From the IMG/VR virus record IMGVR_UViG_3300016476_001223, positions 1 to 30,796 of that record: a stretch of 30,796 nt of DNA; one strand, written 5' to 3'. The notes below the pieces were generated by a model, which saw nothing but the letters and a program-made list of their open reading frames with translations, ran no database searches and was not told the origin of the DNA. A program made the translations under genes and the position numbers. The number at the start of each line of letters is the position of its first letter. The stretch's first letter is position 1. Below, in pieces: positions 1 through 29,715 of the stretch. The stretch is from a virus. Taxonomy: Duplodnaviria; Caudoviricetes.

Positions 1-5
1 ACTTA

Positions 6-53
6 TAACGTCCGATGATAAACAATCGTTTTAATGTTGTTTATCATTTGTTA
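6..53 (+). repeat. attC-like recombination site 1
   Basis: TAAC(6-9), 5 nt, ATGATAAACAA / TTGTTTATCAT 11-bp inverted repeat around loop TCGTTTTAATG, 2 nt, GTTA(50-53). Confidence 0.7.
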
Positions 54-83
54 TGTATATGTAAATTTTTAATTAAACGAATT

Positions 84-302
84 ATGAAAAAGAACAAAAC
101 TCGAAATATAGACGAACAACTTCAAAAATTGTTATATGAAGAATATGGAGAAGAATACATTCAATGGTATAAGAAAACTTTTGATGTTAAATTATATTTT
201 GATGGAGCGGAAACTTCGGATAGAGGTTATTTAACAGATAAAGAGTTTGATGAATGGAAAGAGGAAAAATGGAAACAATTTTTGACTAAGTATGGTTATT
301 AA
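84..302 (+). CDS. hypothetical cassette protein (72 aa)
   Basis: ORF 15..302; the in-frame ATG at 84 in A-rich context is a more plausible start than the ATG inside the hairpin. Stop lies just before the next TAAC site. Confidence 0.6.
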   Translation: MKKNKTRNIDEQLQKLLYEEYGEEYIQWYKKTFDVKLYFDGAETSDRGYLTDKEFDEWKEEKWKQFLTKYGY

Positions 303-316
303 AAATTTATTATACA

Positions 317-441
317 TAACGGTCACAGATATATTCAGTTGTTTACTTAAATTAAAACACAAATGATAAAAGAAGAAGAATATTTAAAAGCAAAACAGAT
401 AGTTCAAGAATACGAAAAACAATTGAATATATCTGATGTTA
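317..441 (+). repeat. attC-like recombination site 2 (large coding loop)
   Basis: TAAC(317-320), 5 nt, CAGATATATTCAGTTG(326-341) / CAATTGAATATATCTG(420-435), 2 nt, GTTA(438-441). Confidence 0.7.
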
Positions 442-698
442 GGCAACGTTCTATTGCAGTAATTTCATTAGATACTAATGATTTCAAACTTTGGAAAACG
501 GATAACAATTTAAAACACGATGGATTAGACACACAAAGAAGATTTAAAGTTGGTAATGCCACATATTATTGTATTTCCAAAGTTTGTGATTTATGTTCAC
601 TTGCTATTGATGAAATTATAGAAACAAAATACGCTAAAGAAAACAAAGAGTATGAACAAATAAAATTAGTTGCAAGAGGCAATGTGAATGTTGTCTAA
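363..698 (+). CDS. hypothetical protein that starts inside attC-like site 2 and reads into the next cassette
   Basis: 111-aa ORF; QLNISDVR is encoded by the 3' arm of the hairpin; the stop TAA is part of the next site's TAAC. Confidence 0.7.
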   Translation: MIKEEEYLKAKQIVQEYEKQLNISDVRQRSIAVISLDTNDFKLWKTDNNLKHDGLDTQRRFKVGNATYYCISKVCDLCSLAIDEIIETKYAKENKEYEQIKLVARGNVNVV

Positions 699-744
699 CG
701 TTTTGCGTATAAAAAATCGTTTTAATGTTTTTTATACGCTGTTA
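696..744 (+). repeat. attC-like recombination site 3
   Basis: GTCTAAC, 5 nt, GCGTATAAAAAA / TTTTTTATACGC 12-bp inverted repeat around the same loop TCGTTTTAATG as site 1, 1 nt, GTTA(741-744). Confidence 0.7.
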
Positions 745-779
745 GCTTTAGTTTTTTGGTGGAATTTAATAACGAAAAT

Positions 780-1010
780 ATGAATTGGATAAGTGTAAAT
801 GAAAAGATGCCTGAATGTTGGTCGCAACACGGCAAATCCTTTGCGACTGGATATTTACTAACCTATGATAAGTATGGTGAATATCAAATAAACCAATATT
901 GGAAACATGGAGAACATACAAGCAAAGGATGGATTAAAAGTAGTGAAGGTTGGGAAGAATGTGATGGGGAAGTAACTCATTGGTGCGAACTAACTCCACC
1001 AAAAAATTGA
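780..1010 (+). CDS. DUF551-like phage protein
   Basis: MNWISVNEKMPE...VTHWCELTPP fits the WISV-x-LP / VTHW-x-LP-PP family pattern; ATG at 780 preferred over TTG at 756. Confidence 0.65.
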   Translation: MNWISVNEKMPECWSQHGKSFATGYLLTYDKYGEYQINQYWKHGEHTSKGWIKSSEGWEECDGEVTHWCELTPPKN

Positions 1011-1031
1011 AGCTAACTCGTATATATACGA
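1010..1031 (+). repeat. terminal or degenerate cassette-array site
   Basis: AAGCTAAC(1010-1017) is the reverse complement of GTTAGCTT(741-748); it is followed by the palindrome TCGTATATATACGA instead of a full hairpin. Confidence 0.5.
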
Positions 1032-2955: not shown

Positions 2956-3285
2956 ATGGGAATTAACTTACACGAAAAATTGTTAGAGATAAAACAAGAC
3001 TATAAAAATCTAACAAATAAGAATTCTGAACAGATTAACATCATATCAAACAAAATATTAGATGTTTTTGAATATGAGTATGCCACTTTATTAAAATCCG
3101 AAAATCCAAATTATTCAGAACTAAAAGAATTTATTATGTGTTTTATACATGGTAGATTTAAAAAACAATTAAAGTTTAATTTATGGACTGCAATGGCTTT
3201 TTATACTCAAACAGAGTTAACTAATCATGTTAAAAATGTAATGAGGTATAAATATCCAACTAAAACTAAAAAACATGAAAGATAA
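2956..3285 (+). CDS. hypothetical protein
   Basis: 109-aa ORF in operon-like packing. Confidence 0.65.
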   Translation: MGINLHEKLLEIKQDYKNLTNKNSEQINIISNKILDVFEYEYATLLKSENPNYSELKEFIMCFIHGRFKKQLKFNLWTAMAFYTQTELTNHVKNVMRYKYPTKTKKHER

Positions 3286-3772
3286 ATTACGCAAATATAA
3301 TAATGGAATTTATGTGTTATATGATTGTGATGGTGACATCATAGCATCAAGCGACCTTAAAACATCAACAAGTAAAAAGCTTTCTGTAAAAAACTGCCAA
3401 GCAATTGAGAATGGTTATGATTTGGAAGATTTAGCTTATGATTTTTCTTGGAATTATCAATCTGATCCAAATTATGGTGATACAACTAATATATTCAAAG
3501 CAGGCTTCCAAAAAGCACTTGAAATTATTGGTGATAAGAAGTTTAGTATAAATGAAGTTGTAGAACTATGTAAAATACTAATAAGTAATCCTTTTGAAAG
3601 AAGTGGAAAAACTTATCAAGAGTTAACAGATTCTTATGTCCAATCACTACAACAAACTGAATGGGATGTTGAATTAGTGATGGTCCCAGCATTGTCAAAT
3701 AATGGTAATGTGTATTATGGTGATATACCAAAACTTGATGCAGATGGATGTTTAATACTTAAAAGAATATAG
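3275..3772 (+). CDS. modular paralog family, copy 2
   Basis: Same conserved blocks; ends PKLDADGCLILKRI. Confidence 0.85.
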   Translation: MKDKLRKYNNGIYVLYDCDGDIIASSDLKTSTSKKLSVKNCQAIENGYDLEDLAYDFSWNYQSDPNYGDTTNIFKAGFQKALEIIGDKKFSINEVVELCKILISNPFERSGKTYQELTDSYVQSLQQTEWDVELVMVPALSNNGNVYYGDIPKLDADGCLILKRI

Positions 3773-5301: not shown

Positions 5302-5373
5302 AGTCAGGTGGTCGATAATGGCAATGGCGATTACGGAAGTAATAGAATATAGGTTCGAATCCTATCCTGGCTA
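5302..5373 (+). ncRNA. tRNA-like RNA with a GNRA tetraloop instead of an anticodon loop
   Basis: Acceptor AGTCAGG/CCTGGCT-A; D-stem GTCG/TGGC; ATTAC-GGAA-GTAAT; T-arm ATAGG-TTCGAAT-CCTAT; 72 nt. Confidence 0.7.
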
Positions 5374-10511: not shown

Positions 10512-11015
10512 ATGAAAGCAAAATTAATTAAAGTAAATGACATTTATCGTTTAATTAACGATAATAATTCAATAATTGGTACAACTGATTTAGAATATCA
10601 AAAAGCTTTTTCTGATGTTTGTTTTTTATTATCTACCAAAAATTGTGAAGCAATTGAAAATGGTTATGATTTGGATGAGTTGGTAGACGAAATGCTAGAA
10701 AAAGCACAAACACCCCATAAACTTATTAGTCCAAGTACATTTAGAAGTGGTATAATCAAAGGTTTCCAAAAAGCACTTGAAATTCTTGGTGATAAGAAGT
10801 TTAGTGAGGAAGACATGGTTAAAATGTTTTTTAATGGCAGAGAATCTTTAGATAAAGCATTAGTTACTGTACAAGAAGCAAAAAGTGTTATCCAATCACT
10901 ACAACAAACTGAATGGGGTGTTGAGATTGAGATGGATATTTGTGGTGATAAAGTATATGCTGTACCAGAACCAGTTTTAGATGAAAATGGTTGTTTAATT
11001 TTAAAAAGGAAATAA
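10512..11015 (+). CDS. modular paralog family, copy 3
   Basis: Same conserved blocks; 47 nt (10761-10807) identical to 12061-12107. Confidence 0.85.
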   Translation: MKAKLIKVNDIYRLINDNNSIIGTTDLEYQKAFSDVCFLLSTKNCEAIENGYDLDELVDEMLEKAQTPHKLISPSTFRSGIIKGFQKALEILGDKKFSEEDMVKMFFNGRESLDKALVTVQEAKSVIQSLQQTEWGVEIEMDICGDKVYAVPEPVLDENGCLILKRK

Positions 11016-11817: not shown

Positions 11818-12309
11818 ATGAAATATAAATTAATTAAAACAACAAAAGGATATTCTTTGTTAGATAGTGCAGAAGATGTAATTGCAACAACCCAAGATAA
11901 ACCTAATGAAGTTATAAAATACCAGCTATCATTGAAAAATTGTGAAGCAATTGAGAATGGTTATGATTTAGATCAGTTGGGAATGGATTATGCTTCAACT
12001 ATATATGACGGCAGAACCGAATCAATACGCTTTAATGGTGCTCACATTGATTTTATGAAAGGTTTCCAAAAAGCACTTGAAATTCTTGGTGATAAGAAGT
12101 TTAGTGAAGGTGATATGCTTGAATGTTGGAATACTGCTGCACAAACAATTTCTATTTCTTGGGTTAATTTTATGGAATCAATAGAACCAAATGAATGGGA
12201 TGTCGAAATAGTCACCAGACCTTATACTGAAGTAGGTGAAGGTTTTGTTCTTAAAGAAAAAAGAGAGCCAAAATTAGATGATAATGGTTGCTTAATTTTA
12301 AAAAGATGA
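11818..12309 (+). CDS. modular paralog family, copy 4
   Basis: Same conserved blocks; ends PKLDDNGCLILKR. Confidence 0.85.
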   Translation: MKYKLIKTTKGYSLLDSAEDVIATTQDKPNEVIKYQLSLKNCEAIENGYDLDQLGMDYASTIYDGRTESIRFNGAHIDFMKGFQKALEILGDKKFSEGDMLECWNTAAQTISISWVNFMESIEPNEWDVEIVTRPYTEVGEGFVLKEKREPKLDDNGCLILKR

Positions 12310-12520: not shown

Positions 12521-13840
12521 ATGAGCCAAAATACTTTAACAACAAGAAAGATTGAAATCTACGTTTCAGAATCAGATAAGGATTTAAGAAAAGAATATTA
12601 TAAGACTCTTAGAAATTGGTCATACATTTCCAGGAACTACGCCAATGATACAATTAATGCCCTTCAATCTTCTTTCTTCTTAGATAATATAACTAAGGAT
12701 TCAAATGAAGAGAATAAAAAAGCTCTAACAGAATATCTAGGAATTAAAAAAATGGGTATGGGATATAAAATCCTTGCAAATAAATATAAGGAACATTTAC
12801 CATCATACTTTAGGTCTGCAATAAACTCATTTGTATATAAGAACTTCTCAGAATCTATTAGAGATGTGCTTAGAGGAGATTCATCTGTTACTTCATTCAA
12901 GAAAGACTTCCCATTGCTATTCGATAGTCGTTCAATTAGAAATCTTTCAATAGATGATAAAGGAGGTTCATTTGAATTCTCCGCAATTCCATTTAGATTT
13001 GTTTTCGGTAGAGATAAATCTAATAATAAATCTATAGTCGAAAAAATAACAACAGGAGAATATAAGATGTCAAACTCATCTTTCAAGTTTATAGATAATA
13101 AACTATTCTTCTTTCTTACTGTATCAATTCCAAAAGAAAAGTTTGAACTAGATGAGAATAAAACCCTAGGAGTTGATTTAGGTATTGCAAACCCAGCTTA
13201 TGTATCTATCAATAATGATAAACACTTTAAACAAGCAATAGGAAGTACAGACGCTTTCTTACATACAAGACTCGCAATTCAAAAAAGTAGAAAGTCCCTC
13301 CAAAAAAATCTTACACATACCAAAGGAGGTAGAGGAAGAAATCATAAATTGGATAAACTAAATGATATAGGATCCAAAGAAAGAAACTTCGCCAAGACAA
13401 TGAATCATTCTTGGTCAAAACAAATTATTGAAGCTGCAGTAAAAAATAAATGTGGGACAATAAACATAGAAGATCTTAAGGGTATAGGAAGAGATGAAAA
13501 GAATTCATTCGTTCTTAGAAACTGGTCTTACTTTGAATTGCAAACAATGATTCAGTATAAGGCTGATAGAGCTGGAATAAAAGTTAATATGGTTAATCCT
13601 AAGTATAGCTCTCAAAGATGCTCAAGCTGTGGATTTATTCACGAGGATAATAGAATATCTCAGTCAAAGTTTATATGCCTAGAATGTAAGACGGAAATGA
13701 ATGCTGACTATAATGCTTCTAAGAATATATCTATAGCTCACACCAAAGAGTATGTAAAGGAAATTGAAAATCATTCTAAGGCTATAGAGAAATTGAAAAA
13801 ATTAAATAAGGAAGAAAAAAATGTAGAAGAAATGTTGTAG
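12521..13840 (+). CDS. cas12f: Cas12f-like (type V-F / TnpB-family) RNA-guided nuclease
   Basis: 439 aa; RuvC-I GVDLG, RuvC-II IEDL, NWSYFELQTMIQYKA helix, Zn-finger CSSC...CLEC, RuvC-III NADYNASKNI; CRISPR array 210 nt downstream. Confidence 0.85.
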   Translation: MSQNTLTTRKIEIYVSESDKDLRKEYYKTLRNWSYISRNYANDTINALQSSFFLDNITKDSNEENKKALTEYLGIKKMGMGYKILANKYKEHLPSYFRSAINSFVYKNFSESIRDVLRGDSSVTSFKKDFPLLFDSRSIRNLSIDDKGGSFEFSAIPFRFVFGRDKSNNKSIVEKITTGEYKMSNSSFKFIDNKLFFFLTVSIPKEKFELDENKTLGVDLGIANPAYVSINNDKHFKQAIGSTDAFLHTRLAIQKSRKSLQKNLTHTKGGRGRNHKLDKLNDIGSKERNFAKTMNHSWSKQIIEAAVKNKCGTINIEDLKGIGRDEKNSFVLRNWSYFELQTMIQYKADRAGIKVNMVNPKYSSQRCSSCGFIHEDNRISQSKFICLECKTEMNADYNASKNISIAHTKEYVKEIENHSKAIEKLKKLNKEEKNVEEML

Positions 13841-14465: not shown

Positions 14466-14863
14466 GTGGTAATTTGTGGGTGAAAATGTAGGTAAAAATA
14501 TAGTCAAAATTATGTGCTATTTTTATACAAAATTTTATCAAATAATTGTTGATAAAATTGATGTGTAAATTTGTGGTAATTTGTGGGAGGTTTTAGAGCT
14601 GTTTTTGAGCTTTTTTAATGCCATTTTGATAGAGTTATCCACACTTGTTGATAACTATTAATTAGTTAATTGGTTGATTATCAGAAAGAAACGCAGATTT
14701 TAGTCGCTTTTTGTATATAAAAAATTTCAACCCTGTTCTGTAGACATTTTCCCCCACAAACTCCCACCAAAATTTTGACCAACGATATTTTTAATCAATT
14801 GTTGGTTGAGCCCTCAAAAGCAATAATTTGCCCTCACGGATCACATTCATAATCAGTAAGTTG
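14466..14863. other. candidate replication-origin-like region
   Basis: TTATCCACA 14635-14643; TGTTGATAA 14547-14555 and 14646-14654; TTATACAAA 14523-14531; GTGGTAATTTGTGGG at 14466 and 14573; IHF-like matches at 14667-14679 (minus) and 14851-14863. Confidence 0.45.
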
Positions 14864-14932
14864 CAAAAAAGTTTTATAAAATTTGGAAAATAGAAAAGTA
14901 TATAAGATAATTTTTGTGGGGGTTTAATTTGA

Positions 14933-14948
14933 TGTTTCAAGTGGAACA
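14933..14948. other. parS-like site
   Basis: TGTTTCAAGTGGAACA, one mismatch from the parS sequence TGTTTCACGTGGAACA. Confidence 0.45.
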
Positions 14949-15121
14949 AATCATTGGGGGTTTTTGGCATAGTAAACCAGGGTCAGAATTGACTAGCAAT
15001 TTGACAAGATAAAAAACAAGAAAAAAGAGTCCCTCACACGTTACCTTTTGGTTGTGTCAAGATAGCATAAAAATCATGCTTTGAGGGTTTATATTTGGGG
15101 GTTTATTTTTTTATTTTTTTT

Positions 15122-15446
15122 TTAAGTTTTCTTTATTTGTTTTTCTATAACAATGTGGGGGGATCTAAATAGATTCTACCTCCTTATATATATAATACGA
15201 CTATGCCCCCCAAATGTTACAGGGGCTATAAAAATATAATTGCAAAACTTAAAAAAAAAGATAATTATTTTTTTTATTTTTTAAAAAAATATTTTTAAGT
15301 TCTACCAGAAAAACTTTCTATAAGTTGGCTTTTGGGGGGGCGTGAAATAAATTTTGGGGGTTGAGCCAACCTATAGAAAAAAATACCCCCAAAACTTAAA
15401 TTAATTTTTTTTTAAGTTCTTGCTAGAAAAATTTCTATAGGTTGGC
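15122..15446. promoter_or_regulatory. cluster of TTAAGT-N16-TCTATA motifs plus one ECF-type promoter
   Basis: Motif at 15122(+), 15295(+), 15372(-) and 15412(+); ECF-type promoter at 15196-15221(-). Confidence 0.65.
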
Positions 15447-15493
15447 GTTTGGGGATTTATATTTTATCAACATTAAGTTGATAACTATAATAT

Positions 15494-15766
15494 TTATGAT
15501 CTCAACAAAGAAATGCTTTCTCCTTCTTGTAGGTCGTTTTTTACTGAGTGTATATTAATTATTCTATATGTATATATTCCTACTTGTTCCCAGGTTTCTT
15601 TTCTGAGTTGTTGTTTTCGATTATTATCTAGATATATGATTGTTTGTTCTGAATAATCATTTTCTCTGTTGTATTTTTCTTTTAATACAAATCTGTCTAG
15701 TTTGTCTTTTAGGTTTGTTATTTGTTTGTTTTCTGTGAGTCCTATATAAATTTGTTTATTATTCAT
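15494..15766 (-). CDS. hypothetical protein
   Basis: 90-aa ORF; shares C-terminal LQEGE with its neighbour. Confidence 0.55.
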   Translation of the reverse strand: MNNKQIYIGLTENKQITNLKDKLDRFVLKEKYNRENDYSEQTIIYLDNNRKQQLRKETWEQVGIYTYRIINIHSVKNDLQEGESISLLRS

Positions 15767-15972
15767 TTGACTTTAATTTTTATTGGTGTTTTAAAATATA
15801 GTTGCTCTCCTTCTTGTAGACCATCTTTAAAGTAATACGAATAAAGTAGAGAGTAGTTTCCTGTTTTTTTATATTCGAAATCTACTTCAGTTTGGACGAC
15901 AGATATTGCTCCATTTAAAACTGTGGATTTTTGTCTGTTGTTTGCAATTTTATTTTTATCTATTTCCAGCAT
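15763..15972 (-). CDS. hypothetical protein
   Basis: 69-aa ORF with an ATGA overlap to the next gene. Confidence 0.55.
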   Translation of the reverse strand: MLEIDKNKIANNRQKSTVLNGAISVVQTEVDFEYKKTGNYSLLYSYYFKDGLQEGEQLYFKTPIKIKVK

Positions 15973-16074
15973 ATATAATTTTTTATCCTGGCATTTTTAT
16001 AACAAACCCCCAAAAGGTTTTTACGCCAAATTGGGGGTTGTTGTTATAGTTAACAGTTTAGTTGTGTATTTTGT

Positions 16075-16443
16075 TTAGTCTCTAACTCTTTCTAGTGCTT
16101 TTGAGAAAGGGTTGTATTGTCTTTGAACTGTTCTTAGATAGATACCTTCATCTAGAGTAATTGGCCCGTGTTCTTCGTGCATGATTACAGCTGTTCCTTT
16201 TACTTCGAAGAAAATATTTTCTCTTTCTACCAGGTCACGAATTTCTGTAGAGTCGTATCCAGCTACATTATGGTGTTCAATAATTGTGGAGTCGTCTAGT
16301 GCAAATATTTCATGGCTATGGCCTGTAACTTCACCAAGTCCTATAGTAAGTTTTTTTGTTTCTCTAGTTTCCATTCCAGAAACTTGATCTTTGGAGACTT
16401 TAAATATTGTCATATCTCCATGTCGTGCAATAACGTTTGTCAT
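16075..16443 (-). CDS. His-rich putative metal-binding protein (usual partner of DUF6745-like proteins)
   Basis: RHGD...GEVTGHSH...HEEHGPITL...QRQY motif set; TAnnTTTG promoter at 16466-16473(-). Confidence 0.75.
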   Translation of the reverse strand: MTNVIARHGDMTIFKVSKDQVSGMETRETKKLTIGLGEVTGHSHEIFALDDSTIIEHHNVAGYDSTEIRDLVERENIFFEVKGTAVIMHEEHGPITLDEGIYLRTVQRQYNPFSKALERVRD

Positions 16444-16492
16444 AATTGGTTGTTTTATGTATTTACAAATATAAGTTTTTTTTTAAAAAGTA

Positions 16493-17203
16493 TCAAGCCT
16501 CTGCTTGAAGTTTTAGGTATTCTTCTTTTGTTAAGCAGGATCCATTATCTTTAACCATTGTCCAGGCAACAGCTCCAATTGCATCTTGGCATTGTGGTTC
16601 TTCTGAGTCAACGAAAATAAAGTAATGATTATGTGTTGAGGGACATTCAACTTCTAGAACATATATTGGATTTTCCAATCCAGAGTTTTGTCCGAATTGT
16701 TTTTCATTTACTACATGTAGTGTATAAGTATCATTATATGTTACTTCTTTTGTTTCAAATAATTCAGAAGCTACAGAGGGAGAGTTTTGTCTCTTTGTTG
16801 TTTCGAAGTTAATTGAAGAATTATCTTTAAGGAAAGTTCTCTTTTGAGTTTTTGTAATTGTTTGTTGATCTTTAATAGTTGAGTTAAGTGCTTTGAAAGT
16901 TGCTTCTGGTCCCATAATAGATAATACAGTCATTAGCTGTTGAGCATTTGACGAAAATTTTTTGAGGGCTTGAATTGCTGAGATTGGTTTAACAGTTTCC
17001 CAGGCTTCAATTATATCTGGCTCAGGAGATGTATATTCAGGCATTTCAAGAGCTCTTGTTTGGAATAGATGTTCTTCTAGGGAGAAGTCTCTTTGATGTT
17101 TACGTATTGATACATATTCCTTGAGATTAATTTCAAACTTAACTCCTTTAATAAAGAACGTTCTAAATGCTTTAATTGGCGTTGGTAATTTTGTATTTGA
17201 CAT
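16493..17203 (-). CDS. DUF6745-like protein
   Basis: C-terminal VECPST-x-YFIFV...AIGAVAWT motif; ECF-type promoter at 17223-17248. Confidence 0.6.
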   Translation of the reverse strand: MSNTKLPTPIKAFRTFFIKGVKFEINLKEYVSIRKHQRDFSLEEHLFQTRALEMPEYTSPEPDIIEAWETVKPISAIQALKKFSSNAQQLMTVLSIMGPEATFKALNSTIKDQQTITKTQKRTFLKDNSSINFETTKRQNSPSVASELFETKEVTYNDTYTLHVVNEKQFGQNSGLENPIYVLEVECPSTHNHYFIFVDSEEPQCQDAIGAVAWTMVKDNGSCLTKEEYLKLQAEA

Positions 17204-17257
17204 AATTTATTTTTTTTATTATTACGAATTTAATTAAAAAAAGTTACAAATATTATT

Positions 17258-17821
17258 TTAATTGAACTTATATGCTCTATCTTTAATGAAGTATATTCCT
17301 TTCTGAATTATATATTCTTCATCTGTAAAATATCCTTTGCTAATATTTAATTGGTTTTCATTTTTAATTCCCAAAACAATTGAGTTATCCAGGTTAACAG
17401 TTTCTTTTGTTTTGATATAGTATATAATGGATGAACCTCTTTCTGCCAGGAGTGAGCTGGTTGATATTATTATATTTTCGTTTGTAATAAAAACTATTTT
17501 ATTTATTTGATCATCTGAAAGGTCTATGTATATACCGTTTTGTGAGGGGACAACTTTTTTGTTTGTTGTGTTAATGGGGAGAGTTTTAATATCTAGTTTA
17601 AATGGTTCGCTTATTGGCGTTTTAAAGTTTTCATCTTTGAGGGATGAGGTATTTATTACTTCTTGTGGAATTTTTATGTTTAAATTCTTTTGAATCCAAT
17701 CAGCTGTATTTAAATAGGAATTGTTTATATGTTTTTTTTCCTGGTTCTGTTTTTTGTTTAGGGATGAAGCTATTATTATAATAGACAGGGAGAGTAATAA
17801 ATAAAGATGTATATTTTTCAT
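17258..17821 (-). CDS. membrane-anchored or secreted hypothetical protein
   Basis: Hydrophobic N-terminal helix; ECF-type promoter at 17831-17856. Confidence 0.65.
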   Translation of the reverse strand: MKNIHLYLLLSLSIIIIASSLNKKQNQEKKHINNSYLNTADWIQKNLNIKIPQEVINTSSLKDENFKTPISEPFKLDIKTLPINTTNKKVVPSQNGIYIDLSDDQINKIVFITNENIIISTSSLLAERGSSIIYYIKTKETVNLDNSIVLGIKNENQLNISKGYFTDEEYIIQKGIYFIKDRAYKFN

Positions 17822-17908
17822 ATGGTATAATACGATTAAGAATAAAAAAAGTTACAAATAAAAATGAGGGAGACTTTTGCCTCCCCCAAAAAAGTTATTT
17901 ATTTTTTT

Positions 17909-18859
17909 TTACATTGCAAGTAGTAATTCTGTTGCTTTGGTTGCAATGTTTGCTGAGGCACCGCCTAGAACATTGTCAAACTTTGTTGAGTCATTACGGT
18001 AATTTTTTACATGGTCTAAGTAAAAAGTAATTCCGTTAATTGCTCCCCAAGCAGTTCCAACAATTTTCTCTTGGCCAACGCCAGCGAAGTAGCATTCTAA
18101 TACAGCATCCTCAATATTTTTAATTCGAGTGCTGTCACGCTCTTGTTCATTAAACAAGTTGCGAATTAGTTCTTTAACAGAATCATCAGAAACATATTTC
18201 TTAGACAAGAAGTTAAAGCACTCATTTGCTTCAGCAACAAACGCCTTAGAAATACCTAGCACGTTGTGTGCATCAGCCAAGCGTTGTTTAACCATAGAGC
18301 TATGTCTAATTGAAACACGGTTTATTGTATTTCCAAGTGCCATATTGAGGGTGTTTTGACAAACCACACGAATAGGTGTTACAGCTGCAATAATGGAACC
18401 TGAGCCATCATGTGAAGAAGTTAGGAGAACGTACACTTCTGTTAGGTCATCTGTACCCGCAATACGAATTGTATCTGGCATTTTGGCTGTGACAAAAATC
18501 TTTTCGCCAATCCCCAATACTCCTGCGGTTTCATAAATTGCAGAGCCTGTCTCTGTAATTGTGTCAAAAAATTCAAACGCTTCTAGGTTCTGAACTATGG
18601 TATAGTTCTTTCCAATACGGTCTCCTAGAATTTGTCCTGTGTCAGTTCTGAGGGTTGAGAACGAAGCCGGGGTATCCAAGAACTCGCCGTTATAAAAGGC
18701 GTAGTTTGGAACTTTAACCACGTCATAATCTAGACGAGCCAATTCAATTGCCTCTTTTGCTGTCATAGCACCATTAACAATTTGACCAAGTCCGTGCCAT
18801 GCTGTTTGAGTGCTAGCGAATGAAGCAACTCCGTTTCTAATCTCTAAGTTGTGAGCCAT
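17909..18859 (-). CDS. DUF932-family phage/plasmid protein
   Basis: MAH...AWHGLG...YTIVQN.EAF.FFD...ETAG.L..G...SHDGSGS...TPIRVVCQNTL...GTAWGAINGIT. Confidence 0.9.
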   Translation of the reverse strand: MAHNLEIRNGVASFASTQTAWHGLGQIVNGAMTAKEAIELARLDYDVVKVPNYAFYNGEFLDTPASFSTLRTDTGQILGDRIGKNYTIVQNLEAFEFFDTITETGSAIYETAGVLGIGEKIFVTAKMPDTIRIAGTDDLTEVYVLLTSSHDGSGSIIAAVTPIRVVCQNTLNMALGNTINRVSIRHSSMVKQRLADAHNVLGISKAFVAEANECFNFLSKKYVSDDSVKELIRNLFNEQERDSTRIKNIEDAVLECYFAGVGQEKIVGTAWGAINGITFYLDHVKNYRNDSTKFDNVLGGASANIATKATELLLAM

Positions 18860-18890
18860 AGTTTTAAAATTTAATGATTTATAATGTTAA

Positions 18891-18926
18891 TACGATGATA
18901 TAGAAAAAAAGTCACAAGAAACTTAA
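18891..18926 (-). promoter_or_regulatory. interleaved ECF-type promoter and TTAAGT-N16-TCTATA motif
   Basis: TGTGAC-N16-CGTA (18891-18916) overlaps the second motif (18899-18926); same nesting at 21830, 24218 and 29089. Confidence 0.7.
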
Positions 18927-19136
18927 ATTAATTTTTATTTTTTTTTCTGTGCTGTTAATCGCTATCAACATTTATATAGAAAACTATGGGGGATAAACTT
19001 AAAAAAAAGTAAATAAATTTTTTTAAAAAAGTTTTTAAGTTTTGGTTTTATTTTTTTCTATAGGTTGGCTTTTGGTTGGGGGTACAAAAAAAGGTATCGC
19101 AAAATACGATACCCTCAAAAAACTTTTAATTAGATA

Positions 19137-19592
19137 TTAACTAAAATATAAATCAGCTTCTGACTGGCGTCTTCTTGTTAGGCCGGCCAAAGCTCTTCCC
19201 CCGGCTTTGTTCCACTTCATAAACTCTTGTCTAATTGTTTCATCATTAGGGTTTGCATTTACTTTTTTCAATAGTGTGCTGCTTTTCAAGTTTGCAGGTC
19301 CTAAGTTATAGCAGAAACTAGTAAGTGCGTCAAATTGATTCTGATTAACATCATCTCTACAATATGAGTCAACGTATTGTTCGAACTTTGAAAGTGTGTG
19401 CATTAAAAGCTGTGTAGCTCTTTCTTCTGTAATTGCAGGATCTTTCATTGTCACTTTTTTTCCATCTTCATAGAAAGTGGCACCATATCCTATGGTTGGA
19501 ATTTTTGCTGGGCACAAATATGGTTTTAATCTAATACCCTCAAAAGATTTAATTACTTCTAATCCTTTTGATCCGATTTTTGTTATTTTCAT
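19137..19592 (-). CDS. GH24 phage lysozyme (endolysin-like)
   Basis: FEG.RLKPYLCPAKIPTIGYGAT, NQNQFDALTSFCYNLG, SSTLLKKVN, GLTRRRQSEA. Confidence 0.95.
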   Translation of the reverse strand: MKITKIGSKGLEVIKSFEGIRLKPYLCPAKIPTIGYGATFYEDGKKVTMKDPAITEERATQLLMHTLSKFEQYVDSYCRDDVNQNQFDALTSFCYNLGPANLKSSTLLKKVNANPNDETIRQEFMKWNKAGGRALAGLTRRRQSEADLYFS

Positions 19593-19765: not shown

Positions 19766-19847
19766 TACTTTGGGAGGGACTCGAACCCTCACACCTTGCG
19801 GCACTGCGCCCTTAACGCAGCATGTCTACCAATTCCATCACCAAAGC
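19766..19847 (-). tRNA. tRNA-Leu(AAG)
   Basis: Acceptor GCTTTGG/CCAAAGT-A; anticodon arm CTGCG-TTAAGGG-CGCAG; long variable arm with GCAA loop; T-loop TTCGAGT. Confidence 0.9.
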
Positions 19848-19853
19848 GTAATG

Positions 19854-19927
19854 TGGTCCAGGAGGGACTCGAACCCCCGACCTCAAAATTATGAGTTTTT
19901 TGCTCTAACCAGCTGAGCTACAAGACC
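19854..19927 (-). tRNA. tRNA with CAT anticodon, probably Ile2 (lysidine-type)
   Basis: GGTCTTGTAGCTCAGCTGGTTAGAGC...CTCATAA...GGTTCGAGTCC; discriminator A; a few stem mismatches. Confidence 0.85.
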
Positions 19928-20010: not shown

Positions 20011-20610
20011 TTAATTTTTATAATTCTTTAAATATCTTTCCTTCCTTGAAGAGTTTTTATTTTTTGATTTATAAGTATCTAATTGAGAATCACAATTATG
20101 ACAAATTAGTCTTAAATTTTCTCTTTTGTTATTTACTGCATCACCATCAATATGATCTAAAATAAAAATTAATTCTTTATTATTCCAAATATTATCAATA
20201 TTACAAATTAAACATTTACAATTTTGTTCTAATAAGATATGTTTTTTGGCAAATTTCATATCTCTATCATAACAATATTTTTCTTGGTTTTGCAAATATT
20301 CATTATATTTTTTTCTTTTTTTAAAATCATTATCACACTCTCTTGAACAAAACTTTTGACCAACCCAAGATTTATAAATGTCACTTCCACAATTCTCACA
20401 ATCAATTTTTTTACCAGTATTTTTATTGTGTGGTACGAAATCAATTTTAAATACTTTTCTTTTATCTAAAATAATTCCTAATTTATTTGCAACTTTTCTT
20501 ATGTAAGTATCACTTACACCATAAATTCTGCCAATTTCACGATAAGATAATTTTTTAATAAAAATTAGTTCGTAAAGTTCTTCTTTTTTGTATTTTTCAT
20601 TTAAGCTCAT
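20011..20610 (-). CDS. free-standing HNH endonuclease
   Basis: N-terminal HTH, CxxC...FCSREC zinc motif, LDHIDGDAVNNKRENLRLICHNC. Confidence 0.9.
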   Translation of the reverse strand: MSLNEKYKKEELYELIFIKKLSYREIGRIYGVSDTYIRKVANKLGIILDKRKVFKIDFVPHNKNTGKKIDCENCGSDIYKSWVGQKFCSRECDNDFKKRKKYNEYLQNQEKYCYDRDMKFAKKHILLEQNCKCLICNIDNIWNNKELIFILDHIDGDAVNNKRENLRLICHNCDSQLDTYKSKNKNSSRKERYLKNYKN

Positions 20611-20671: not shown

Positions 20672-20744
20672 TAGTCCTATCAGGGTTCGAACCTGAACGA
20701 TTTCTTTAGAAGAGAAATATGCTATCCAATTACATCATAGAACC
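20672..20744 (-). tRNA. tRNA-Arg(TCT)
   Basis: Acceptor GGTTCTA/TAGGACT-A; anticodon arm TTTCT-CTTCTAA-AGAAA; T-arm TCAGG-TTCGAAC-CCTGA. Confidence 0.85.
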
Positions 20745-23560: not shown

Positions 23561-24196
23561 CTAAAATCCTCCTTTAGTTAAAATATCTTTCAAGTGTTTT
23601 TTTGCTCTGTGTAAAAAAGCTTTTACATCACTTTGAGGAATACCCATTTCGCTTGAAATTTCAGAATAACTTTTGTCGCCAAAATAATAAAGAACAAGAG
23701 CTTGTCTTTGTTTTTCATTTTTTATTTTTTCAACAGCTAAGAATAACAATTTATATTCTTCTGCTTTAATCATTGAATTCATAGAGTTGTTTAGCAAGTT
23801 TTTGTCTTCTACTTGAAACTCAATAAATTCATCTCCATTATTTGTTGTAAAACCTAAACTATCTAAACTCACTTCTGAATTACTTTTTTTCTTTCTGAAA
23901 TCCAAAAGAGTATTGTTTGCAATTTTGTAAATCCAACTTGAAATTGTTCCCTCATCTGACGAGTAAGAATCGAATTTTAAATGAACTTTTGTAAATACGT
24001 CCATTAATAAATCTTTCGCCACTTCTTCGTTGTAATTAAGCTTTTTATTTAAAAAGTTAAAAACTTTACTTTTATATTCTTTGAACAACAATGAGAAACC
24101 CTCATCTTTTTTTATTTGTGAATTGCAGTTAATCAACTCTAAAACTCTACTCTCTACATTCATCTCCTTCGCCGCTTTCATTTGTGTCTGTCTCAT
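23561..24196 (-). CDS. ECF-family sigma-70 factor
   Basis: Region 2 AKDLLMDVFTKV...SWIYKIANNTLLDF; region 4 QRQALVLYY..KSYSEISSEMGIPQSDVKAFLHRAK; own ECF-type promoter at 24218-24243. Confidence 0.92.
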   Translation of the reverse strand: MRQTQMKAAKEMNVESRVLELINCNSQIKKDEGFSLLFKEYKSKVFNFLNKKLNYNEEVAKDLLMDVFTKVHLKFDSYSSDEGTISSWIYKIANNTLLDFRKKKSNSEVSLDSLGFTTNNGDEFIEFQVEDKNLLNNSMNSMIKAEEYKLLFLAVEKIKNEKQRQALVLYYFGDKSYSEISSEMGIPQSDVKAFLHRAKKHLKDILTKGGF

Positions 24197-24247: not shown

Positions 24248-25381
24248 TTAAAAACTTTTTTCTATTTTTCTCAATCTTTCAATAATATTTTCATCATAAC
24301 GTATTCTTTCTAATCTTATATTATTTTTAATGCAGAAATTACTTTTAAACTCATCTCTTTTTTTATTTTCTAATAACTTTTCTTCTCCTCCGAAATGCTC
24401 AATCGCATAAAAATGTTGTTTTCCGTCAAATTCGATGCACATATTATAGTCAGGTAAATAAAAATCGAAATATAATTGTCTTTTAAATTTACAATTGTTA
24501 AAGGTTTTTTGTTTGCTAAAATTTATTTTTTTATTTATAAGCCACTTTCTTATCTCTCTCTCTCCTTTTGATTCATTACAATTAGGACAACCAACACCAG
24601 ATAAATGACTGCCTGCTCCTTGCTTAAATTCCCCATGTATTGGGCAAATAATATCAACCTTACCATAGTGATTTGTGTAATTAACAAGGGAATAGTCATA
24701 TTTATTCTCATGTACATCAGTAGCTCTTCTTAAGAAATCCTTCATAGTTAGCTTTTTACTACCAGAACAGGTTCGACAACCCTTCCCACTTAAATGCCCT
24801 CCTGCTTTTTGTTCCCAAATTCCATGTTCTGGGCAAATTATTTTAATTTTCACTTGAGTACCTTTATAATCAACCAAAGAATAATCATATCTATTGTTAT
24901 GTATAAATTTAGAACGTTCTACAAATTCTTCTTTGGTTTTTTGCTGTTGTTTGATGCTATTTTTTATTTTACCACACTCTCTACAGCCCTGTCCTTTAAA
25001 ATGTTTACCTGGAGTCTGTTCAAATAAACCGTGCTTTGGACAAACTATTTTAACTTTAGTTGCAACATTTTTATATTCAACAAGAGAATAATCATATTTA
25101 TTTTCATGAATAAAATTAGAACGATTAATAAAGGTGTCTAGACTTAATTTACTGTAACTACCGTCATCGTTATTTTTTCTTTTTTCGTTATAACATTTTT
25201 GACATCCAGTTCCCAACAATAAAGAATTTGGTTGCTTACTAAATTCTCCATGCACTTTACATATTAAATTAACATTAGAAAAAATATTCTTATATTCAAC
25301 TAATGAATAATCAAATTTATCTCCATGAATTTCTTTTGCTCTTCTTATAAACTCTTCTTGAGTTAATTTTGTTGTTTTCAC
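24248..25381 (-). CDS. homing-endonuclease-like protein with four Zn-binding repeats (DUF723-like) and a PD-(D/E)xK/Vsr-like domain
   Basis: 4x H.x.YDYSLV.Y...I(I/V)CP.HG...G.GC..C; C-terminal FDFYLPDYNMCIEFDGKQH. Confidence 0.85.
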   Translation of the reverse strand: MKTTKLTQEEFIRRAKEIHGDKFDYSLVEYKNIFSNVNLICKVHGEFSKQPNSLLLGTGCQKCYNEKRKNNDDGSYSKLSLDTFINRSNFIHENKYDYSLVEYKNVATKVKIVCPKHGLFEQTPGKHFKGQGCRECGKIKNSIKQQQKTKEEFVERSKFIHNNRYDYSLVDYKGTQVKIKIICPEHGIWEQKAGGHLSGKGCRTCSGSKKLTMKDFLRRATDVHENKYDYSLVNYTNHYGKVDIICPIHGEFKQGAGSHLSGVGCPNCNESKGEREIRKWLINKKINFSKQKTFNNCKFKRQLYFDFYLPDYNMCIEFDGKQHFYAIEHFGGEEKLLENKKRDEFKSNFCIKNNIRLERIRYDENIIERLRKIEKSF

Positions 25382-29642: not shown

Positions 29643-29715
29643 TGGTGGAGGCAGGAGTTGAACGCTGCGACACACGGGGTTTCAAGCCGTTGCTCTACCA
29701 CTGAGCTACTCCACC
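29643..29715 (-). tRNA. atypical tRNA-Phe(GAA)
   Basis: Acceptor GGTGGAG/CTCCACC-A; canonical D-arm; loop TTGAAAC; C-C mismatch at the anticodon-stem base and a bulged T-stem; TATATTTG promoter at 29728-29735(-). Confidence 0.7.

Follow-up and report, generated by a model that had tools for sequence, protein, structure and literature searches.

Bases 1-1030 of a 30,796-base virus record (the window; completeness about 16%) are read here, with a probability of about 0.85, as the docking-site end of a phage cassette array. A short Xer-like tyrosine recombinase that works on folded single-stranded DNA hairpins likely excises and inserts the units of the array, and the window's own gene for that enzyme is probably a relic. 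The reading rests on comparison of the window with other phage and bacterial sequences.

Three hairpins that carry an AAC/GTT core were claimed in a preliminary description of the sequence, and a stem scan together with DNA folding places them as described (Table 1). Sites 1, 2 and 3 are each more stable than shuffles when folded as DNA, with z-scores of -3.4, -2.4 and -5.8 on the plus strand and -2.7, -2.7 and -3.8 on the minus strand. The whole window contains 14 AAC..GTT stems, four of which have a spacer of 5 nt on one side and 1-2 nt on the other (sites 1-3 and a weak one at 18967); ten dinucleotide shuffles of the window yielded one such stem altogether. The loop TCGTTTTAATG is common to sites 1 and 3, whose stems differ and are each fully paired, again as described. 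The sites had also been called attC-like and non-canonical for their 5 versus 1-2 nt spacers and their want of obvious extrahelical bases, which agrees with the folds and site scans: the predicted folds of sites 1-3 contain no single-base bulge (extrahelical base), and pairing was ungapped in 23 short cores as seen by an ungapped scanner, long sites perhaps bulging further up. Rfam gave no family on the sites, the window or eight array loci, and a suspected link to a Flavobacteria RNA motif found no support.

Table 1. Coordinates of the array features in the window
Feature	Position	Strand	Description
Site 1, short attC-like hairpin	6-53	+	TAAC-5 nt-11-bp stem-TCGTTTTAATG-stem-2 nt-GTTA; AAC 7-9 (putative crossover), GTT 50-52; spacers 5/2; part of cassette 3
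Site 2, long attC-like hairpin	317-441	+	AAC 318-320, GTT 438-440; 19-bp stem with one G.T; spacers 5/2
Site 3, short attC-like hairpin	696-744	+	AAC 697-699, GTT 741-743; 12-bp stem; spacers 5/1; part of cassette 1
Cassette 3	7-317	+	311 bp, AAC to AAC; hairpin 1 and 72-aa ORF 84-302
Cassette 2	318-696	+	379 bp; hairpin 2 and 111-aa ORF 363-698, which takes its stop codon (TAA) from site 3
Cassette 1	697-1014	+	318 bp, beside the attI-like site; hairpin 3 and 76-aa ORF 780-1010
attI-like docking site, right array end	1014-1026	+	TAAC-N5-TATA (minus strand TATA-N5-GTTA)
Probable relic of recombinase leader and first ~12 codons	1038-1106	+	KKANYSEICK, then stop; usual distance from the attI-like site

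The flanks of the hairpins are complementary within a unit and not within a hairpin, as had been claimed. Cross-unit matches in the three units are 10/10, 9/10 and 8/8, the third extending over 26 nt at 88%, whereas the two ends of one hairpin match at a mere 6/9, 6/9 and 5/9 positions even with the GTTA core included, and there is little match beyond GTTA. Recurrence of the complementarity in homologous loci had been proposed as a check, and it does recur: hairpins with cross-unit complementarity are found in hundreds of viral records. Among 126 distinct adjacent-site pairs, a unit's own ends pair at 4.78 of 6 positions, against 2.32 +/- 0.10 after permutation (maximum 2.67 in 2,000) and 2.38 of 6 within one hairpin in the same comparison. 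End pairing extends some 12 nt beyond GTT and includes a G.T pair at position 7. Since the ends of a unit are complementary, a circle formed from it would contain a closed site. Fetched stretches with the short-site pattern number 129, with an estimate of about 640 for IMG/VR, and the 5/1-2 geometry is found in 283 of the 369 stems of 133 oriented loci (three are the window's own) but in only 1 of 24 on the opposite strand.

Near-identical short hairpins are present in many unrelated contexts, and hairpin families are repeated. This could suggest non-autonomous REP- or MITE-like hairpins spread by an HUH or IS transposase, and the window does hold an IS605/TnpB-like gene (12521-13840, 439 aa, phrog_506 transposase match at E 3.5e-44). 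Sites are, however, confined to one side of the recombinase and to one strand, and their flanks pair across a gene, unlike those of free-standing insertions; we find this explanation barely credible. In 17 gene-less units, GTTA-N5-TCGTTTTAATG-N5-TAAC in form (loci including L147, L148, L110, L059, L172 and L181), the loop TCGTTTTAATG makes up the entire body; 15 of these units have 5/5 paired flanks. The same 11-mer closes short hairpins after xxTA-N5, and both site arms look symmetric. The gene-less units may be a trace of how cassettes are first made, a question for integrons too.

Comparison of related genomes for changed cassette order had been suggested, and it places all three window cassettes in other phages with different neighbours. 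Cassette 1 recurs in locus L327 with 312/321 identical bases from AAC to AAC, between unrelated flanks (8/40 bases alike on the left, 17/40 on the right); its ORF is DUF551-like, with a Pfam score of 21.3 bits that lies below the cut-off of 22. Cassette 2 recurs in locus L333 at 87% DNA identity (312/358), ending at TAACG 700 ahead of another hairpin; an exact 18-nt search of viral contigs gave no match to its body. The body of cassette 3 recurs in locus L314 (92% amino acid identity), where identity ends at TAACG 321 and another hairpin follows, and a match in record 29 of run X9 likewise ends at 321; PHROG and Pfam were blank for its ORF. At L314:4935-5000 and in L333 near 1122, the cassette body adjoins a hairpin that breaks off within the loop, which points to non-site-specific deletion between A/T-rich leader stretches of similar sequence. 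With the upstream hairpin broken in this way, these two loci fix the right boundary only.

The cassette unit is a hairpin plus the gene behind it, with recent crossover in the plus-strand AAC (G|TT on the minus strand, the one that has the classical polarity), because near-identical units break at AAC and carry the upstream hairpin. Our polarity set consisted of 288 clean units, pre-filtered for end complementarity, with 11 full-length pairs at an identity of at least 85%. The upstream hairpin was kept in 7 of 10 shared cassettes with a different previous neighbour (not kept in three), and the downstream hairpin in 1 of 8 with a different next neighbour; 3.5% of random hairpin pairs are that alike. 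In 277 of the 288 phage units the longest ORF runs against site polarity. Recent moves, represented by cassettes 94-100% identical, by L327 and by the Polaribacter phage Freya isolates, have their breaks at AAC and carry the upstream hairpin.

Six of the nine other Freya isolates were compared with Freya_10, leaving out Freya_3, _4 and _7 (loci L317-L326 are Freya_1, 2, 5, 6, 8, 9 and 10). Five lack 4,942, 4,100, 3,198, 902 or 307 bp, with a joint that shares AAC or CAAC only. In the sixth, Freya_6, 3,195 bp are missing, and 469 nt foreign to Freya_10 stand at the docking site with an AAC on either side; a hairpin scan of this new unit found none. The arrays of these cultured isolates thus differ by exact AAC-to-AAC changes (6/6), which speaks for the distinct phage-borne shuffling system that had been proposed. 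In the assembled records three of the joints are at record ends and three are internal, and an overlap of 3 nt is probably too short for assembly collapse. The Freya recombinase is 38.5% identical to the viral group and follows a looser array (5-6/2-3 spacers). The size range of the Freya isolates, 44.0-48.9 kb, is accounted for by AAC-bounded deletions and one insertion beside the integrase. The main text of the source paper (PMC8776804) contains neither 'integron' nor 'cassette', and the integrase is read there as a sign of temperate life.

Long hairpins have a further role to consider: many of them, site 2 included, likely also start translation of the gene behind. The loop of site 2 holds an ATG (363), and the site encodes the first 26 codons (..KQLNISDV, in which V is GTT). 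Hairpins of the site-2 type have an in-frame ATG in 33/33 cases, with the frame open over at least 80% of the body in 30/33 and the other frames in 0/33 each; leader coding was found in 39/91 other long hairpins and in 9/72 short ones. Searching for relatives of the cassette-2 protein in the range of 61-195 aa yielded 67 in the database, of which 16 are full-length (76-88%); in about 40 the shared part is the leader alone, and unrelated tails follow the GTT valine directly. Such leader-only relatives indicate that, on a longer time scale, bodies are also re-paired at the plus-strand GTT. Of 64 pairs of near-identical long hairpins, 60 have bodies unrelated to each other, and identity between near-identical hairpins falls off directly after GTTA. 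On these alignments the plus-strand GTT is a second, older modular boundary: members of one hairpin family continue, from GTT(A) on, into bodies that are unrelated. Together with the three of ten upstream hairpins that were not kept, the unrelated bodies mean that a second route must exist, whether by crossover at the opposite end or by homologous recombination within the arms; excision at the GTT end would give a closed circle too.

The preliminary description had envisaged integron-type cassettes inserted at G|TT. Mobile cassettes stand; the place of recent crossover does not, since cassette pairs, L327 and Freya put it at the plus-strand AAC. Were the cassettes instead a gene plus its downstream hairpin, with plus-strand G|TT crossover as the main route, the shared leaders with tails unrelated after the valine and the loss of identity right after GTTA would be accounted for. 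We judge this most improbable, given that recent moves break at AAC with the upstream hairpin and that the array ends in a bare AAC core.

That bare core, at 1014-1026, is called attI-like because of its matrix score, its position and its flank match. A matrix built on 56 distinct relatives, whose extraction pattern was written after the window's site had been seen, puts position 1014 at the top of 61,560 window positions, and an earlier 13-sequence matrix puts it second. By itself, the TAAC-N5-TATA pattern shows no significant excess in the window (5 against 2.7). The core TAAC-T....ATAT lies shortly before the recombinase gene in 69 of 80 viral loci. The site, which overlaps the right AAC flank of the third unit in the preliminary description (1010-1017), is not a further attC but the attI-like array end. 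A second motif with an attI-like score, at 15482 (12.6 bits), has no array beside it.

To the right of the docking site, the recombinase gene of the window is probably reduced to a 5' relic. The relic aligns to the leader and first codons of the L167 gene with a local score of 47, reached by 0/300 random window segments and 1/300 shuffles; it is weak in two of three tests (nhmmer E 1.5; protein matrix rank 9 of 61,504). No recombinase had been visible in the window, and neither tblastn nor a profile search at E<=10 found one there. Recombinase loss is not rare, as the 99% complete L314 phage keeps only residues 206-267. For the 68-aa ORF at 1126, viral contigs, PHROGs and Pfam yielded no relative. 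A sigma-70 promoter and terminator scan of 1-1500 gave no excess, and a host test with the Bacteroidota promoter motif TAnnTTTG was uninformative (43 against 58 in shuffles).

Contigs of about 4-fold depth from two studies (runs X6 and X8) agree with the window starting at 1013 and 1014 and onwards through the relic; left of the junction they have 47 and 112 letters differing from the window. These letters are probably cassette ends; if so, the first cassette changed after the recombinase had decayed. No excised circles or joints were seen in eight public runs, all of which consist of contigs. A skip of 442-703 in run X1 (20-nt side) was rejected as a joint, being most likely from another genome that shares hairpin arms, and the absent coverage of cassette 2 in run X2 proves nothing as excision evidence. 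Given a completeness of ~16%, the array can continue left of base 1; no longer copy reaching past base 1 was retrieved.

Elsewhere the window encodes four paralogous ORFs of 163-187 aa (1840-2403, 3275-3772, 10512-11015 and 11818-12309) with an NC.AIENGY.DL core and no PHROG match, five tRNA genes (5302-5373, 19766-19847, 19854-19927, 20672-20744 and 29643-29715), a sigma factor (23561-24196), an endolysin (19137-19592), HNH-type endonucleases (20011-20610 and 24248-25381) and many small genes. A strand-switch region at 14700-19100 has long inverted repeats rich in A/T and G/C runs.

The recombinase itself was surveyed in relatives: 50 of the 133 loci, fetched from other records and picked for long contigs (49 records). 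PF00589 matched in 16 of the 49 array-bearing records and in 2 of the 8 near-complete ones, and in 16/16 of these loci the sites are upstream on the gene's strand (one of the genes is in pieces). The earlier suggestion of a tyrosine recombinase upstream, to the left, was thus sound as to an enzyme beside the arrays and mistaken as to its position, which lies on the array's right side. Among 298 viral relatives, the best 80, a set that includes near-duplicates, have 284 sites upstream of the recombinase gene, 14 downstream and 9 on the other strand; a site is present in 51 of the 58 loci having over 1.5 kb upstream of the gene. The phage recombinase is of the tyrosine type, ~267 aa long, lies directly after the last unit and keeps the catalytic motifs. 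In 5/5 cases tested it falls under the IntI, XerA, XerC and XerD cut-offs: scores on TIGR02249 are 136-158 bits (cut-off 265), and those on NF040815, XerA being the best family match, are 179-195 bits (cut-off 220). The best structure match is PDB 4A8E (E 7.5e-40). Over the IntI-specific region the enzyme is about 48 residues shorter than IntI4, and the alignment splits (query 176-214 against chain 179-265). XerC/D-type recombinases act at the dif site. The phage enzyme is like XerA, XerC and XerD in its best family and structure matches, but lies under all curated cut-offs and is tied to hairpin arrays rather than to a dif site.

Integrons (IntI1, VchIntIA, PDB 2A3V) are alike in having a tyrosine recombinase gene, a simple docking site and a polar array of one-gene units, in the GTT/AAC crossover core, in unit ends that pair in the circle, in one strand favoured for folding and in a recombinase that points away from the array in site polarity. 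Complementary cassette ends corresponding to R'/R'' are found here, as is an attI-like site beside the recombinase with G|TT crossover (1014 ranked first; AAC of the Freya joints is GTT on the other strand); a recombinase gene adjoins the array in 16/49 records of relatives, the window having none but the probable relic. The differences are a phage recombinase without the IntI-specific domain, spacers of 1-2/5 (classical polarity) in phage sites versus about 5/5-6 in attC (5/6 in attC aadA7), window stems without an extrahelical base, and end pairing that reaches about 12 nt beyond GTT. Phage genes also run against site polarity, which places the hairpin at their 5' end, where it can provide a start codon, whereas integron attC is 3' of the gene; an integron-like attC at the gene 3' end is seen in the bacterial relatives and not in phage arrays. 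Judged from sequence, the system works like an integron without belonging to the integrons as IntI and attC define them. An additional domain is defining for IntI in the accessible text of PMC9668308, and alpha-I2 is IntI-specific in that of PMC3053210.

The array might otherwise be an ordinary CALIN, a cluster of attC sites that has no integrase, taken from a bacterial integron and moved by a true IntI. Both the AAC/GTT core and the closed-circle complementarity are the same, and phage CALINs have been described by Qi et al. 2023 (PMC9892861), where HattCI called a site of the Polaribacter phage P12002L attC. This P12002L_attC1 (TAAC..TCGTTTTAATG..GTTA), handled there like any other attC, is of the same family as window sites 1 and 3, and the strand predicted as its bottom strand coincides with the gene strand; P12002L attC2 lies where the present model places the closing AAC of that unit. 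According to the accessible part of that paper, P12002L_attC1 was the one of six sites to give no IntI1 co-integrate, and no recombinase or docking site of its own is named there for P12002L. The copy is slightly degenerate (a bulge; 6/3 register), and its failure with IntI1 may come from decay. Besides this negative assay, the adjoining recombinases with their low TIGR02249 scores (5/5) and missing ~48 residues, the spacers that depart from those of attC aadA7 and the stems without a single-base bulge all speak against a CALIN, which we hold to be highly improbable. The literature searched, in which subscription papers are largely uncovered, yielded no description of a hairpin-cassette system.

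Counterparts of the phage arrays occur on bacterial chromosomes. Of 545 relatives that we confirmed in a genome collection, the best 80 are, going by their titles, almost exclusively Bacteroidota, with recombinases 40-47% identical, and from these relatives the host of the present phage is probably a member of Bacteroidota. A site lies within 3 kb after the gene in 24 of 73 bacterial loci (L241-L313); 20 of those 24 have a matching GTT within 400 nt, in 19 of the 20 as TATA-N5-GTT, the reverse of the window's TAAC-N5-TATA. Of the 80 bacterial contigs, 38 end within 1.3 kb of the recombinase gene. The bacterial arrays share the TATA-N5-GTTA core, the site geometry and the G.T strand, while the layout mirrors that of phages: the array comes after the 3' end of the recombinase gene, and genes run along site polarity in the loci mapped. 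No description of such chromosomal arrays was found in print.

Two loci in these comparisons have further features. In L332:3046-5220 (NZ_CP104345.1, an Acinetobacter baumannii plasmid), the gene directly behind a shorter recombinase (46% identical) is tet(X3), which precedes what is apparently one arm of this site family; other Acinetobacter plasmids have similar recombinase matches. In L307:11147-19591 (a Saprospiraceae MAG), one 397-aa ORF occurs five times in a ~1.8-kb repeat behind the recombinase, with identical sites between three copies, from cassette amplification or an assembly effect.

Wobble pairs distinguish the strands. On the AAC-5..1/2-GTT strand, G.T and A.C pairs stand at 433:30 in 340 viral sites and at 60:10 in 38 bacterial sites, 32 of them opposite the recombinase strand; the G.T-biased strand is the sense strand in phages and mostly the antisense strand in bacteria. 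G.T skew and folding energy favour one strand in 278 of the 340 sites. Since the wobble follows site polarity and not transcription, it favours folded single-stranded DNA over RNA. This bears on the idea that the hairpins are RNA or translation-start modules, with genes swapped by homologous recombination between repeated hairpins. The repetition of hairpin families, the start codons in some of them, the breaks inside the loop in L314 and L333 and the sense-strand G.T bias in phages would all fit such modules. Yet the bias in bacteria is antisense, Freya joints share only 3-4 nt, covariation links the two ends of a unit rather than those of a hairpin, and arrays end at a fixed core beside a recombinase, so that we regard the idea as very unlikely.

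In the cassette array that we favour, the plus (gene) strand would be the folded substrate, new units would enter at 1014-1017 and the array-adjacent recombinase would be the catalyst. For arrays without an intact cis gene, the enzyme might act in trans (host, co-infecting or distant), or the arrays might now be mostly frozen. The window is then an orphan array end, useful since its three cassettes and docking site can be traced elsewhere.

Integrons are held to recombine folded DNA by virtue of the IntI-specific domain and extrahelical bases. Tentatively, and at somewhat short of even odds, we propose that Bacteroidota and their phages share a second single-stranded DNA hairpin system that does without either. 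The mirrored phage layout would double the site as a translation start, crossover at either end would re-pair leaders and bodies and so build new small proteins, and arrays without a recombinase, like the present one, would go on trading cassettes with the help of host or co-infecting enzymes. Thanks to the Freya isolates and to sites as short as 46-47 nt, the mechanism is open to immediate testing, and Freya in its Polaribacter host would be a ready model. If the proposal is true, the same logic without the IntI domain or extrahelical bases would change the definition of an integron and add a class that current detectors likely miss, and phages would own a gene-shuffling platform that they share with host chromosomes.
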